Source: Escherichia coli
Lineage (GTDB): Bacteria; Pseudomonadota; Gammaproteobacteria; Enterobacterales; Enterobacteriaceae
Strand: one strand, 5' to 3'
Assembly: GCF_030384885.1 (NCBI RefSeq)
Contig: NZ_CP128613.1
Length of the DNA stretch: 64,000 nucleotides
Shown here: in pieces, positions 22,625 through 29,006 of the stretch
Layout: each line of letters starts with the position of its first letter
Position numbering within the stretch: the stretch's first letter is position 1
The notes under the pieces: generated by a model
What the model saw: the letters and a program-made list of their open reading frames with translations, nothing else
The model's database searches: none
Told to the model about the DNA's origin: nothing
Position numbers and translations under genes: made by a program

Positions 22625-24693
<2,069 letters not shown>

Positions 24694-24700
24694 ATAAAAC

Positions 24701-24730
24701 GGGAGGAGAAGGAGCCTCCTGTTTTATTTT
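24701..24730 (+). terminator. Probable intrinsic terminator after envZ
   Basis: AGGAG...CTCCT inverted repeat followed by GTTTTATTTT. Confidence 0.5.
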
Positions 24731-24856
24731 GTGCACTCAGTATCTACTGAATGAATACGGTCTCAGACATCGGCACCATACGAAGTAAAGTGTACTGTAA
24801 GCTGATTGCAGGCTAGCGTATCCTGATTAGTAAAAGCACACTAAAGGAATAGCTTG

Positions 24857-26140
24857 ATGCAACTTACCAACGAAGAACAAGTACAGATTGCTCGTATAAA
24901 AGAAAAAATCCCACGCATTGCCGCACTGGATCCTGAATGTAAGTTATTCGGTTCTGAAGGTTGGAAATATCAATGGCCGAAGCCTGCCAGCGAGGCGGAA
25001 ATAGCTTCCTGGGAGAAAAAACATAGCGTCACTTTGCCACGGGAATATCGAATTTTTCTTCGCTATATCGCTAATGGCGGTCCGGCACATGCCTACGGTC
25101 TTGAATCTTTAGGCGGTACAGATATTTATGGCGATATAACAAAAGAAAGCCCTGTACCGCTTTATATGACGCAGCAGGATGTTGATGTGTTGAATGCTGG
25201 CCGTACAGAAGATGATGAAGAATATAGTTTTTTTGACGGCGCATTGACCATTCTCACCCTGGGATGTACTTATGATATTTGCCTGGTGGTGACGGGGCAG
25301 TATCGCGGAAGGTTAATGCTGACTGATGGTGATGAAGATTATCCGTTTGATTTTATATATGATAAAAATTTCCTCAACTGGTATGAACGCTGGCTGGACG
25401 ATTTTATTGCTGGCATGAGTATGAAGGGTTTCGATAGAAGTTTGCCAGGAACGCAAATTCAACTGCGTGAGTGGTTTTTAACTGAGAAAATCCCGGATTT
25501 ACGTAGATCCATTTTATTCTCGCTATGCCGTTTTCCACAGATAGAACCCGAAACTTTTGCCCTTTGGGAACATGTTTGCCGTACAGAGAATGATAAAGAA
25601 TTGTGTGAAGAGGCATTCATAAGATTACGCCAAAAAAAAGTTTCTTGTGCTGCAGATATTTTTCGACTCTATTTTGCAATGTCAGATGAATTACGTGATA
25701 TTGCTATTAAAGATCTCCGTTTTGCCTGTAGAGATAGTGTGGTGAATATTGAGGATTATATTCATTCACTGTTAATAATAATGCCTGAACTTGACGATGA
25801 CACTCTATCCTCAGCTGTCTTTGCTATACGAGAAACAGAGTATAATAAATATGATACTTTTCTGCCGCTTCTCGAACGTATCACTGATGACCGTCAGCAA
25901 ACATTATTGTGGGCGATGAGTAAGGCGCCTGATTTCAATGAAAGCCGAGGATTCGTTGAGTTGGTATTACCGCTTTTTGCATCATCAAAGATGGAGAATG
26001 TAAGGAAGGCTATTTTGTTGCTCATTGAAGTTAAAGATAATCGTATTCCACCATTGGTTGATGAAGCTGCAACTCGTTTCCCTGAACTGACCATTTTACG
26101 AGAAAACTACTATCTCAGGACGTGGGGACATAAGCCATAA
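24857..26140 (+). CDS. Accessory protein: SMI1/KNR4 (SUKH-1)-like N-terminal domain plus about 230 aa helical C-terminal extension
   Basis: N-terminus carries the SMI1/KNR4 signature (EAEIASWEKKHSVTLPREYRIFLRYIANGG ... DYPFDFIYDKNFLNWYERWLDDF). ATG at 24857 has RBS AAGGA 9 bp upstream; the track used TTG at 24854. AT-richer than flanks by eye; no K-12 counterpart remembered at this locus. Confidence 0.7.
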   Translation: MQLTNEEQVQIARIKEKIPRIAALDPECKLFGSEGWKYQWPKPASEAEIASWEKKHSVTLPREYRIFLRYIANGGPAHAYGLESLGGTDIYGDITKESPVPLYMTQQDVDVLNAGRTEDDEEYSFFDGALTILTLGCTYDICLVVTGQYRGRLMLTDGDEDYPFDFIYDKNFLNWYERWLDDFIAGMSMKGFDRSLPGTQIQLREWFLTEKIPDLRRSILFSLCRFPQIEPETFALWEHVCRTENDKELCEEAFIRLRQKKVSCAADIFRLYFAMSDELRDIAIKDLRFACRDSVVNIEDYIHSLLIIMPELDDDTLSSAVFAIRETEYNKYDTFLPLLERITDDRQQTLLWAMSKAPDFNESRGFVELVLPLFASSKMENVRKAILLLIEVKDNRIPPLVDEAATRFPELTILRENYYLRTWGHKP

Positions 26141-26177
26141 ATTAATGGTTCAGAAATGATCTAACGCGGAGAAAAAT

Positions 26178-26708
26178 ATGATCAGGGAACATATTCAGCA
26201 AGCGATAAATAATAGGTTAGCATTTGATGGCCCATTCAATGTTGTTCCTGAACCTGCAAGCACTGCGTTTGATAGCCGGATCCCGACATTGAAAAACGGT
26301 GTCTGGCAGAAGGCCAGCCCTATGTTGCAGGCGCGTTTTGCACATTGTGGACGTTGGTTAAGCGCTACACATGGAAGCTGGCTAAGTATAAGTGACATGG
26401 AAACGCTTTGGCAGGAACACATAGAAGATACGTTTCTTGATGAAATCAAAATGAATGCTGTAGCTTCAAGTGATAATTGGGATAACCATGCCTTGGGACT
26501 ATTTCGTTCTCATCGCCTGTCACTTTTTGCCGGTAGTGATTACAGTTATGAAATGGTTTTTCTCCTTTGGCTAGATAGTACCGTTGAGCCAGAGGTCTGG
26601 GTTTATGACTGCAATGGGGAATCACGTTATAAAGATCTTAATGATTACCTGAATGCATATATTAATGATGACGTAAGCGCCTGTGAGCGCTCTTGGCGAG
26701 TAGAATGA
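26178..26708 (+). CDS. Accessory small protein (176 aa), uncharacterised, possibly SUKH/immunity-like
   Basis: C-terminal segment EPEVWVYDCNGESRYKDLNDYLNAYIND resembles the C-terminal block of SUKH-type proteins; RBS GGAG 7 bp upstream; same strand as and 37 bp after the preceding ORF. Confidence 0.55.
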   Translation: MIREHIQQAINNRLAFDGPFNVVPEPASTAFDSRIPTLKNGVWQKASPMLQARFAHCGRWLSATHGSWLSISDMETLWQEHIEDTFLDEIKMNAVASSDNWDNHALGLFRSHRLSLFAGSDYSYEMVFLLWLDSTVEPEVWVYDCNGESRYKDLNDYLNAYINDDVSACERSWRVE

Positions 26709-27331
26709 ATAGCCCCCCTTGCCCCTTTGATCCACAAACCGCACATTACCTCGGCACAGTGCAAATCCACTACACCTCAACCACCTTCAACGCTGCCGTT
26801 AAGCATTATACCTATCACATTAAAAAGCGTTTTAAAGGGGTTAAATGGGGAATTGGTACCGCTGGCTTATTGGCTATATTGCCCATGATCCCACAATGGT
26901 TGAAACCTTCTCATGACTTTAAACTCAACGCAATCAGTACGTTAATTCTTCTATTAATGTTGCCACTCCTCTTATCAATGTTCCTGTTAATCAGCAGAAG
27001 AATTAACGATTTTAAGTCAAAAACAAAGCAAGTTACTTTTACGAAACCCGTGCGTTATGCGTTTTATTTCGAGGGGATTGTTTTTTATGAATCTCATCAG
27101 CAGGGCATACTTCGCTGGGAAGATTTTTATGGCATTGAGTATGAAGAAGATTATTTGTGGCTTTTTCTGCATTTACCGAAGAGTTTTCCCAGAGAAGCGA
27201 CGAAAGCGTTTTGCGATATTTTCATTCCCACCAGTGCGATAAAAGCGCAGCCTGAACTGGATACGTTTTTTCGTGAAACACGCCACTCGCTGGATTATCT
27301 GTTTGTCCCGTTTAATTCTGACAGAAAATAA
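26705..27331 (+). CDS. Accessory membrane protein, YcxB-like (two TM helices plus C-terminal bPH-like domain)
   Basis: ATG at 26705 overlaps the upstream TGA stop (ATGA); the track used TTG at 26693. Two hydrophobic helices (WGIGTAGLLAILPMIPQWL; ISTLILLLMLPLLLSMFLLI) then ...ILRWEDFYGIEYEEDYLWLFLHLPKSF..., typical of YcxB-like proteins. Confidence 0.6.
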   Translation: MNSPPCPFDPQTAHYLGTVQIHYTSTTFNAAVKHYTYHIKKRFKGVKWGIGTAGLLAILPMIPQWLKPSHDFKLNAISTLILLLMLPLLLSMFLLISRRINDFKSKTKQVTFTKPVRYAFYFEGIVFYESHQQGILRWEDFYGIEYEEDYLWLFLHLPKSFPREATKAFCDIFIPTSAIKAQPELDTFFRETRHSLDYLFVPFNSDRK

Positions 27332-27334
27332 CAT

Positions 27335-27362
27335 ATCCCCCGTATCTGGTGAAACGGGGGAT
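27335..27362 (-). terminator. Hairpin terminator downstream of pckA, at the island boundary
   Basis: ATCCCCCGT-atctggtgaa-ACGGGGGAT, a 9 bp stem followed on the minus strand by ATGTTATTTTCT. Confidence 0.6.
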
Positions 27363-27383
27363 TTCGTCGCTTAACTTATCGGA

Positions 27384-29006
27384 TTACAGTTTTGGACCAG
27401 CCGCTACCAGCGCGGCACCCGCTGGGGTGTCGGTGTATTTATCGAAGTTGTCGATAAACAGTTTCGCCAGAGTTTCGGCTTTTTCCTGCCACTGTTCAGG
27501 AGAAGCGTAGGTGTTACGCGGATCGAGGATCTTAGTGTCTACGCCCGGCAGTTCAGTCGGGATTGCCAGGTTAAACATCGGCAAAGTGAAGGTTTCTGCG
27601 TTATCCAGCGAACCGTTGAGGATGGCGTCGATAATGGCGCGGGTATCTTTAATGGAGATACGTTTGCCAGTACCGTTCCAGCCAGTGTTAACCAGATATG
27701 CCTGCGCACCCGCCGCTTGCATACGTTTCACCAGCACTTCTGCGTACTGAGTTGGGTGCAGCGACAGGAACGCCGCGCCGAAGCAAGCGGAGAAGGTTGG
27801 CGTCGGTTCGGTGATGCCACGTTCAGTACCGGCCAGTTTGGCGGTGAAGCCAGAGAGGAAGTGGTACTGAGTTTGATCGGCAGTCAGGCGAGAAACCGGC
27901 GGCAGCACACCAAAGGCGTCTGCGGTCAGGAAGATAACTTTAGTTGCGTGGCCCGCTTTGGAAACCGGTTTAACGATGTTATCGATGTGATAGATCGGAT
28001 AAGAAACGCGGGTGTTCTCGGTTTTTGAACCATCGTCAAAATCGATAGTGCCATCTTCACGTACGGTGACGTTTTCCAGCAGCGCATCGCGACGGATAGC
28101 GTTGTAGATTTCAGGTTCCGCTTCTTTCGACAGCTTGATGGTTTTCGCGTAGCAGCCGCCTTCGAAGTTAAACACGCCGTCGTCATCCCAGCCGTGCTCG
28201 TCATCGCCAATCAGGCGACGTTTCGGGTCGGTGGAAAGGGTGGTTTTACCGGTGCCGGAAAGGCCAAAGAACACCGCAACATCGCCTTTCTCGCCAACGT
28301 TGGCGGAGCAGTGCATAGAAGCGATGCCTTTCAGCGGCAGCAGGTAGTTCATCATCGAGAACATCCCTTTCTTCATTTCGCCGCCGTACCAGGTACCGCC
28401 AATCAACTGCATACGCTCGGTCAGGTTAAACGCCACGAAGTTTTCAGAGTTCAGCCCCTGCTCTTTCCACTGGGGGTTAGTGCATTTTGCGCCGTTCATA
28501 ACGATAAAGTCAGGTTTAAAACCAGCCAGCTCTTCATCGCTCGGGCGAATAAACATGTTTTTGACAAAATGCGCCTGCCAGGCCACTTCGGTGATGAAAC
28601 GGACGGAAAGACGCGTGTCTGGGTTCGCACCACAGAAAGCGTCGACAACGAACAGACGTTTGCCAGAAAGCTGTTTGGTCACCAGGCCCTTCAGATGCTG
28701 CCAGGTTTCCGGAGAGAGAGGTTTGTTGTCGTTCTTACCTTTGCCTTTATCAGCCCACCAGAAGGTATCGCGAGTGGTATCGTCACGGACGATATACTTA
28801 TCTTTTGGTGAGCGACCGGTGAATATACCGGTATCGACGGCAACGGCACCCAGATTAGTTAACACCCCGCGCTCATAACCTGTCAGGCTCGGATCGAGCT
28901 CTTCCTGATACAGCAGGTCGTAGCTTGGGTTGTAAACGATATCATGTACGTCACTGATACCATAAGCCTCGAGTTCTTGCGGGGTCAAACCATTGTTAAC
29001 GCGCAT
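27384..29006 (-). CDS. pckA: Phosphoenolpyruvate carboxykinase (ATP)
   Basis: Recognised protein begins [30 protein letters not shown]... (540 aa); the track ORF starts 23 codons upstream. Confidence 0.95.

Follow-up and report, generated by a model that had tools for sequence, protein, structure and literature searches.

The window analysed here, i.e. the whole 64,000-nucleotide stretch of contig NZ_CP128613.1 from an Escherichia coli genome (RefSeq assembly GCF_030384885.1), has the gene order tex, greB, ompR, envZ, three extra genes, pckA, yhgE and hslO. The second of the three extra genes, referred to below as open reading frame 2 (ORF2), is the subject of this study; it lies between ORF1, which encodes a protein with a SUKH domain, and ORF3, which encodes a small membrane protein. 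In other genomes, nine homologs of ORF2 directly follow genes for type VI secretion system (T6SS) Rhs effectors that all end in the same small toxin domain, and the copy in the window, which lacks such a partner, is probably an orphan immunity gene.

The ORF2 gene and its sequence family

The gene and its translation signal are positioned as follows:

26178-26708, + strand: ORF2, 176 amino acids (aa), ATG start; predicted SUKH-fold protein, probable orphan copy of an Rhs-nuclease immunity family
26168-26171, + strand: GGAG, ribosome-binding site of ORF2, 6 nucleotides (nt) 5' of the ATG, read directly from the sequence

ORF1, ORF2 and ORF3 are co-oriented; the stop codon of ORF1 at 26140 leaves a gap of 37 nt before ORF2, and the stop codon of ORF2 overlaps an in-frame ATG of ORF3 within the sequence ATGA at 26705-26708. 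The product is labelled a hypothetical protein (WP_000617565.1) in RefSeq by the Prokaryotic Genome Annotation Pipeline (PGAP), whereas the same sequence bears the name 'SMI1/KNR4 family protein' in UniRef. ORF2 is a real gene and is under purifying selection. The version of the insertion found here occurs in 18 of 5426 complete E. coli genomes, and in all 18 carriers ORF2 is full-length at an identity of at least 99%; the exact protein was found on about 800 contigs, in a cluster that takes in E. fergusonii, and divergent variants of the island, with 66-67% amino-acid identity in ORF2, keep the reading frame. The ratio of nonsynonymous to synonymous substitution rates (dN/dS) is 0.37 in comparison with the E. 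albertii ortholog; with respect to distant family members the synonymous sites are saturated and the proportion of nonsynonymous differences (pN) is 0.20-0.31.

The original prediction, made from the letters of the window, had called a 176-aa reading frame at this position, and both its extent and the C-terminal end that was quoted for it (...EPEVWVYDCNGESRYKDLNDYLNAYINDDVSACERSWRVE, as read from the translation) were confirmed, as was the remark that an N-terminal LP..Y..FL..NGG motif is missing from ORF2; the motif is present in ORF1 as LPREYRIFLRYIANGG. It had also proposed that the C-terminal block of ORF2 resembles that of the upstream SUKH protein, and this resemblance turned out to be no better than chance. 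BLASTP aligned ORF2 and ORF1 with an E-value of 6.4 and in a region that differs from the claimed block, and a Smith-Waterman comparison of the C-terminal block with the SUKH domain of ORF1 scored 31, a value reached by 19% of the shuffled sequences (mean 27.0, standard deviation 4.8). A profile-profile comparison gave an hhalign probability of 0.1% for the ORF2 family against the SUKH-1 domain of the ORF1 family, and of 0.3% against ORF1 alone.

Searches against curated families were equally negative. ORF2 had no match to the Pfam SUKH families (SMI1_KNR4, PF09346, and others) at an E-value of 10 or below, and none of 100 relatives matched Pfam at 1e-3 (the best hit being SUKH_5 at 0.053); NCBIfam, PADLOC and PHROGs held no match for ORF2, and sequence and profile searches of the PDB with the family yielded chance matches only (E-values of 0.1 and above). 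The family comprises 34 clusters at 90% identity, all of them named hypothetical and none with a Pfam domain; a profile search of 1.84 billion representative sequences enlarged it to 233 members at an E-value of 1e-3 or below. Its members are some 170-180 aa in size and share the hallmark EPE-W-YD-NGESRY--YL-AY, with the invariant signature EPE.W.YD.NGESRY..YL.A, as well as a conserved N-terminal motif, IPTL..G....SPML..RF...G.W.A..G.WLS.

Predicted fold of the ORF2 product

The AlphaFold2 (AF2) model of ORF2, for which the family alignment served as input, has a mean predicted local distance difference test (pLDDT) score of 90.9 and a predicted template modelling (pTM) score of 0.89. According to DSSP it contains helices at residues 48-56, 71-76, 85-98 and 154-162, strands at 60-63 and 66-68, and four further strands at 114-119, 126-130, 139-144 and 147-151; an extra helix spans residues 2-15 at the N-terminus. 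In the published definition (Zhang, Iyer & Aravind 2011; PMC3113570) the SUKH core combines four helices with a β-hairpin and a meander of four strands, and the order of elements in the model (helix, β-hairpin, two helices, four-strand meander, helix) fits that core. Among the proteins retrieved with the model in a Foldseek search of AFDB50, dozens bear the label SMI1/KNR4, with identities as low as 10-25% at a probability of 1.0, and the model is structurally similar to the solved SUKH members 2PRV, 2ICG, 3FFV, 3D5P and Knr4.

These data support the view that ORF2 encodes a single-domain protein that, at the level of the predicted fold, belongs to the SUKH superfamily. The predicted fold is the same as that of SUKH-1 proteins such as B. 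subtilis YobK (PMC3113570). ORF2 differs from the SUKH-1 proteins in that neither it nor its 100 relatives have a significant Pfam SUKH match (SMI1_KNR4, SUKH_5, SUKH_6 or others), in that it lacks the N-terminal LPxxYxxFLxxxNGG-type motif and has an N-terminal motif of its own, and in the extra helix at residues 2-15.

Nine homologs of ORF2 are encoded next to Rhs toxins

A scan of 100,044 species genomes yielded 20 loci with a member of the ORF2 family, to which E. coli records were added. In nine loci, from six genera as we summarise them (E. coli included), the homolog lies directly 3' of a T6SS Rhs gene or of an Rhs C-terminal fragment. The toxin-linked loci are:

L003 and L018, Pectobacterium; L014, Serratia rubidaea; L015, Lonsdalea; L027, Azovibrio
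L028, Burkholderia turbans; L029, Aggregatibacter; L032, E. coli 05-3629; L033, E. coli 2016C-3878

In all nine the start of the homolog is at most 20 nt 3' of the Rhs gene or overlaps its end, and all nine Rhs proteins end, after the DPxGL boundary of the core, in one domain of about 124 aa that is 50-94% identical between them. For instance, in Pectobacterium parmentieri (L003) the homolog, which is 56% identical to ORF2, follows 20 nt after a 1423-aa PAAR-Rhs gene, with VgrG and a DcrB-type chaperone gene upstream, and in E. coli 05-3629 a VgrG gene is followed by a DcrB-related gene, the Rhs gene and a gene for a 176-aa protein. The loci L018 and L027 appear to have the same layout, with VgrG and the DcrB-type chaperone upstream, as judged from unannotated ORFs. 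The toxin-immunity module is present in 70 of the 5426 E. coli genomes, and the toxin was also found in Salmonella, Serratia and Pectobacterium. Such a one-to-one association, seen in Gamma- as well as in Betaproteobacteria, is what marks out a cognate effector-immunity pair.

The window copy itself does not have this linkage to a polymorphic toxin with a predicted nuclease C-terminus, which is a property of the nine homolog loci. ORF2 is 54% identical to the cognate immunity protein of E. coli (L032) and 44-56% identical to the nine toxin-linked members, whose own mutual range is 42-82%, and it keeps 48 of the 50 columns that are invariant in these nine.

In Serratia rubidaea (L014:7319-7987) and in E. 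coli 2016C-3878 (L033:5586-6668) the toxin domain sits on a short Rhs C-terminal fragment, i.e. an orphan toxin module, and each fragment is still followed by a member of the ORF2 family; in L033 the next module consists of a different Rhs C-terminal domain and an Imm11 gene. In Caulobacter sp. UNC279MFTsu5.1 (L022:2467-8444) a 1430-aa Rhs gene, whose C-terminal domain is unrelated to the toxin described here, precedes a string of small genes of which the third encodes the family member, and the locus looks like a poly-immunity string 3' of a different effector.

The partner toxin domain

The toxin domain carries the motif WN..GG.MTRQ…GHxPDvGWGG…VNsYxGGATQA. Invariant in the alignment are W33, N34, G41, G42, T45, R46, R54, H80, D83, W86, G87 and G88, and N102 is near-invariant. 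Its AF2 model (pLDDT 91.4) places G79-H80 on the first strand of a β-β-α unit and N102 at the opening of the following helix. The best structural match of the model is NucB. His-Me-finger nucleases are characterized by the geometry of a general-base His and a metal-ligand Asn, with a Gly before the His in Serratia nuclease (PMC5758888), and the placement of G79-H80 and N102 matches this description. We thus predict that the domain is a NucB-like His-Me-finger (ββα-metal) nuclease; a nuclease is the kind of partner that SUKH immunity proteins typically have (PMC3113570).

At the sequence level the domain matched nothing in Pfam (including PF14040 and the HNH families) or PADLOC, and the best hit in a PDB profile search, an engineered homing endonuclease at an E-value of 0.008, was judged to be due to chance. 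An assignment to Ntox15 had been considered because of the HxxD-like 'HTPD' and was rejected, as there was no Ntox15 match and the match to NucB and the His-Me geometry was preferred.

Compared with NucB of B. licheniformis (PMC5758888), the modelled toxin shares the ββα core and the metal-ligand Asn that opens the helix. It differs in keeping the classical Gly-His general base of Serratia nuclease where NucB has Asp-Glu, in lacking a sequence-level match to PF14040 or an HNH family, and in being delivered as the C-terminus of an Rhs protein, whereas NucB is secreted through Sec. The pair is also distinct from the Tde/Tdi pairs of T6SS DNases (Bacteroides Tde1-Tdi1, 8g0k; A. tumefaciens Atu4351), since the toxin is not Ntox15 and has NucB as its best structural match, and the immunity protein of the ORF2 type is not DUF1851. 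The arrangement agrees with what has been described for SUKH immunity proteins (PMC3113570), namely a small single-domain cytoplasmic protein encoded directly 3' of polymorphic toxins with C-termini of the HNH/His-Me nuclease type; that ORF2 adjoins another, unrelated SUKH gene is likewise as described there.

Orphan contexts of the family

No toxin C-terminal domain, Rhs or VgrG was found in the 64-kb window. ORF2 has ORF1 and ORF3 as its neighbours and is thus not the immunity gene of a cognate Rhs pair, which would lie directly 3' of the effector in the same genome; it is an immunity homolog in a locus without an effector, both in the window and in so far as the strain is outside the 60 of the 70 toxin carriers that were listed. 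None of these 60 listed toxin-carrying E. coli genomes (of 70) is among the 18 carriers of the island.

Many other members of the family are likewise without a toxin next to them. On contigs of the Bacteroides, Parabacteroides and Phocaeicola type, ORF2 homologs occur in arrays of short co-oriented genes with a GC content of 32-39%, next to genes for Imm19, Imm21, Imm32, Imm17, SMI1_KNR4, DUF4304 and DUF4284. [quoted passage not shown] In Corticimicrobacter an orphan homolog adjoins a SUKH_6 gene, and lone copies were found in a second Caulobacter and in Brenneria.

Orphan SUKH immunity proteins with 35-62% identity to their cognates have been demonstrated to be protective in Bacteroidales rAID arrays (PMC12247911). 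By definition (PMC12247911), a rAID array has a tyrosine recombinase beside it and is a long series of short, low-GC genes that point the same way and are separated by conserved intergenic motifs. The E. coli island resembles the rAID/AID arrays described there in the retention of immunity genes without an effector in low-GC co-oriented clusters; moreover, the family of ORF2 itself sits in such arrays (L006, L023, L025), and the orphan-to-cognate identity of ORF2 (44-56%) is within the range that is protective there. It differs from them in having no recombinase and three genes only, located between two convergent core genes, so that the rAID architecture, with its recombinase and long low-GC array, is found at the Bacteroidales homolog loci and not at the E. 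coli island. The rAID SUKH orphan I2 is, furthermore, a dual-SUKH protein that counters a WHH nuclease, whereas ORF2 is a single-domain protein with a predicted NucB-like partner.

The envZ-pckA insertion and its other genes

The convergent genes envZ and pckA are 2690 bp apart in the window (24694-27383) versus 75 bp in K-12, and the inserted DNA has a GC content of 41.6% versus 51.9% for the window. The region 24690-27390 is 100% identical to that of strain 2013C-4282. Its remaining features are:

24692-24729: hairpin I2, just past the envZ stop codon (24693); 15-nt arms, 93% complementary, with T-runs on both sides
24857-26140, + strand: ORF1, 427/428 aa, N-terminal SUKH-1 domain and C-terminal HEAT-like repeats; first gene of the island
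26705-27331, + strand: ORF3, 208 aa (190 aa according to PGAP, from a GTG at 26759), two predicted transmembrane helices and a soluble C-terminal domain
27335-27362: hairpin I5, GC-rich, 12-nt arms, 92% complementary, 4-nt loop; between the stop codons of ORF3 (27331) and pckA (27384)

Hairpin I2 is the conserved terminator of envZ, which is also present in K-12, and the window and K-12 diverge right after it, marking the left edge of the insertion; hairpin I5 is likely a bidirectional terminator at the right edge. Repeats flanking the island were looked for and none were found, and there is no recombinase or integrase gene between envZ and pckA. The total number of promoter-like sites was no different from that in shuffled sequences.

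ORF1 matches the Pfam families SMI1_KNR4 (2.7e-6, residues 44-153) and SUKH_6 (3.4e-5) and is named 'SMI1/KNR4 family protein' by PGAP; HEAT_2 was found in some of its homologs. Gene neighbourhoods were inspected for two ORF1 relatives (L034-L037), one from Klebsiella aerogenes and one from another E. coli site beside a DinG/YoaA-like helicase gene; neither has a toxin partner there and both stand alone among housekeeping genes, so that an immunity role of ORF1 is no more than suggested by its SUKH domain. In the case of ORF3, the candidate starts are the ATG at 26705 (in the ATGA overlap), a TTG at 26693 and the GTG at 26759 chosen by PGAP. Hydrophobic helices were recognized by eye at about residues 47-66 and 73-97, and database matches were weak only (YcxB 0.65, MASE8 0.033, PycTM 0.02). 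Among the fetched loci, homologs of ORF3 occur only in L002 and L010-L013, and ORF3 accompanies ORF2 only in the envZ-pckA islands of Escherichia.

The envZ-pckA interval is a variable site, where other Escherichia carry different cassettes (L002, L010, L012, L013, L038). In a Shigella/E. coli variant the cassette consists of a HEAT-like gene of 142 aa along with homologs of ORF2 (67%) and ORF3 (about 60% amino-acid identity), and strain A30 has a single gene of 346 aa in which a HEAT_2-like N-terminus (a weak match) is joined to an ORF3-like C-terminus, with no ORF2. The occurrence of the ORF3-like sequence without ORF2 and in fusion with a HEAT-like part implies that the island is a mosaic of cassettes, which is consistent with an immunity island and not proof of one. 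In E. albertii (L012:6677-7963) the ortholog of ORF1 can be aligned from end to end (91% identity) and is split into 211 and 179 aa by the ORF call; it may be a pseudogene, next to an intact ortholog of ORF2.

Probable function of ORF2

We consider it probable, at roughly 0.78, that ORF2 is an orphan immunity gene with a product of the SUKH fold, and that the ancestral role of its family is cognate immunity to an Rhs C-terminal toxin. In its ancestral setting a member of the family would neutralize the small C-terminal toxin domain of T6SS-delivered PAAR/Rhs effectors. By analogy with other SUKH immunity proteins (PMC12247911), tight binding of the ORF2 protein to the toxin domain, within the cytoplasm, would block the putative nuclease. 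The 2.7-kb insertion between envZ and pckA was acquired horizontally and holds ORF2 together with the SUKH- and HEAT-containing gene and the small membrane-protein gene. ORF2, which has no toxin partner here, would (provided that it is expressed, as we infer) shield its carrier when kin or neighbouring cells attack with this Rhs toxin. It most likely still recognises this toxin family.

In the light of these results, the original prediction of a SUKH-like, immunity-type gene holds at the level of the fold (AF2, Foldseek and the UniRef name), despite a sequence cue that was not significant, and at the level of the context, given the nine Rhs-linked homologs and the Bacteroidales immunity arrays; the unrelated adaptor that it offered as an alternative found no support. 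Its wider proposal of an immunity array or orphan island stands in part, in that ORF2 reads as an orphan and ORF1 has a SUKH domain, but the relatives of ORF1 lack a toxin and ORF3 remains unclassified.

A number of points weigh against the interpretation of ORF2 as an orphan immunity gene. Among the curated families of the SUKH or Imm type (Pfam, NCBIfam, PADLOC) none is tied to ORF2 by a sequence profile and, because the hhalign probability against the neighbouring SUKH-1 domain is 0.1%, it is the predicted structure that places ORF2 in the superfamily. Only 19 sequences went into the model from which the nuclease activity of the toxin is deduced. Two substitutions in ORF2, R44Q and N153D, alter residues that are invariant in the toxin-linked members and could matter for binding. 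No sigma-70-like promoter was found on the + strand 5' of ORF1, and a terminator follows envZ. Ten of the 70 toxin carriers are outside the listing, and the genome-wide absence of the toxin from island carriers is only partly checked. Finally, ORF1 and ORF3 are without a demonstrated immunity context.

Some of these points would also fit a decaying relic, i.e. an immunity gene left behind after the loss of its toxin, which is unexpressed or binds no circulating toxin. The lack of a clear promoter leaves this explanation some probability, and the absence of a toxin nearby in the window, the rarity of the island (18/5426 genomes), the two altered residues that are otherwise invariant and the split ORF call (211 and 179 aa) for the neighbouring ORF1 in E. 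albertii are all in line with it. A relic is nonetheless hard to reconcile with a gene that is full-length at 99% identity or more in 18/18 carriers, with the occurrence of the exact protein on about 800 contigs in a cluster that includes E. fergusonii, with a dN/dS of 0.37 versus E. albertii, with variants of 66-67% identity that keep the frame, and with the retention of 48/50 invariant residues; we regard it as unlikely.

The compact organization of the island could alternatively mean that the three genes work together as a single unit that has nothing to do with T6SS immunity, such as a stress or anti-phage module in which ORF1 and ORF2 would serve as sensors or adaptors, with ORF3 as the membrane effector. 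The genes are co-oriented and tightly packed (the 37-nt gap and the ATGA overlap), the pair ORF2-ORF3 recurs in Escherichia envZ-pckA islands even where ORF1 has been replaced (L010, L012, L013), and ORF3 has its weak match to the PycTM effector model (E-value 0.02). That match is not significant, however, and PADLOC has none for ORF1 or ORF2; relatives of ORF1 occur alone, and the ORF3-like sequence of strain A30 is found without ORF2. Neither ORF3 nor ORF1 is present in any ORF2-family locus that was fetched from outside Escherichia, where the family members come after Rhs toxins or belong to immunity arrays. Because the ORF2 family thus does without ORF1 and ORF3 beyond this genus, a three-gene system is disfavoured and seems quite improbable. 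A housekeeping or regulatory role of the SUKH-fold protein, like that of Syd with SecY or of Smi1/Knr4 in cell-wall regulation, is more improbable still, because the gene is patchily distributed and horizontally acquired (strain-variable, low in GC and inserted), and its family (42-82% identity) is tied in nine loci to one and the same toxin domain.

Starting from ORF2 as an orphan immunity gene, we may tentatively go one step further. The envZ-pckA interval could be the enterobacterial counterpart of the acquired interbacterial defence islands of the Bacteroidales, that is a hot spot without a recombinase that swaps orphan-immunity cassettes (ORF1, ORF2 and perhaps ORF3), in which ORF2 would actively protect against an unannotated NucB-like Rhs nuclease of about 1% of E. 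coli as well as of Salmonella, Serratia and Pectobacterium. This extension is a conjecture that we hold to be somewhat less than even in likelihood.

Implications

The principle involved is not new, since there is an established body of knowledge on SUKH immunity proteins, on orphan immunity genes and on Rhs nuclease toxins alike. What the analysis provides is a specific and testable function for a gene that is hypothetical in RefSeq, namely immunity to a family of putative Rhs C-terminal nucleases outside Pfam, together with named candidate partners, the Rhs C-terminal domains of E. coli 05-3629, at L032:6984-7358, and of Pectobacterium parmentieri, at L003:5607-5981. It also documents, for E. 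coli, a probable orphan immunity gene of the T6SS type that is located outside any T6SS or rhs locus, and thereby bears on the resistance of gut Enterobacteriaceae to each other's contact-dependent weapons.
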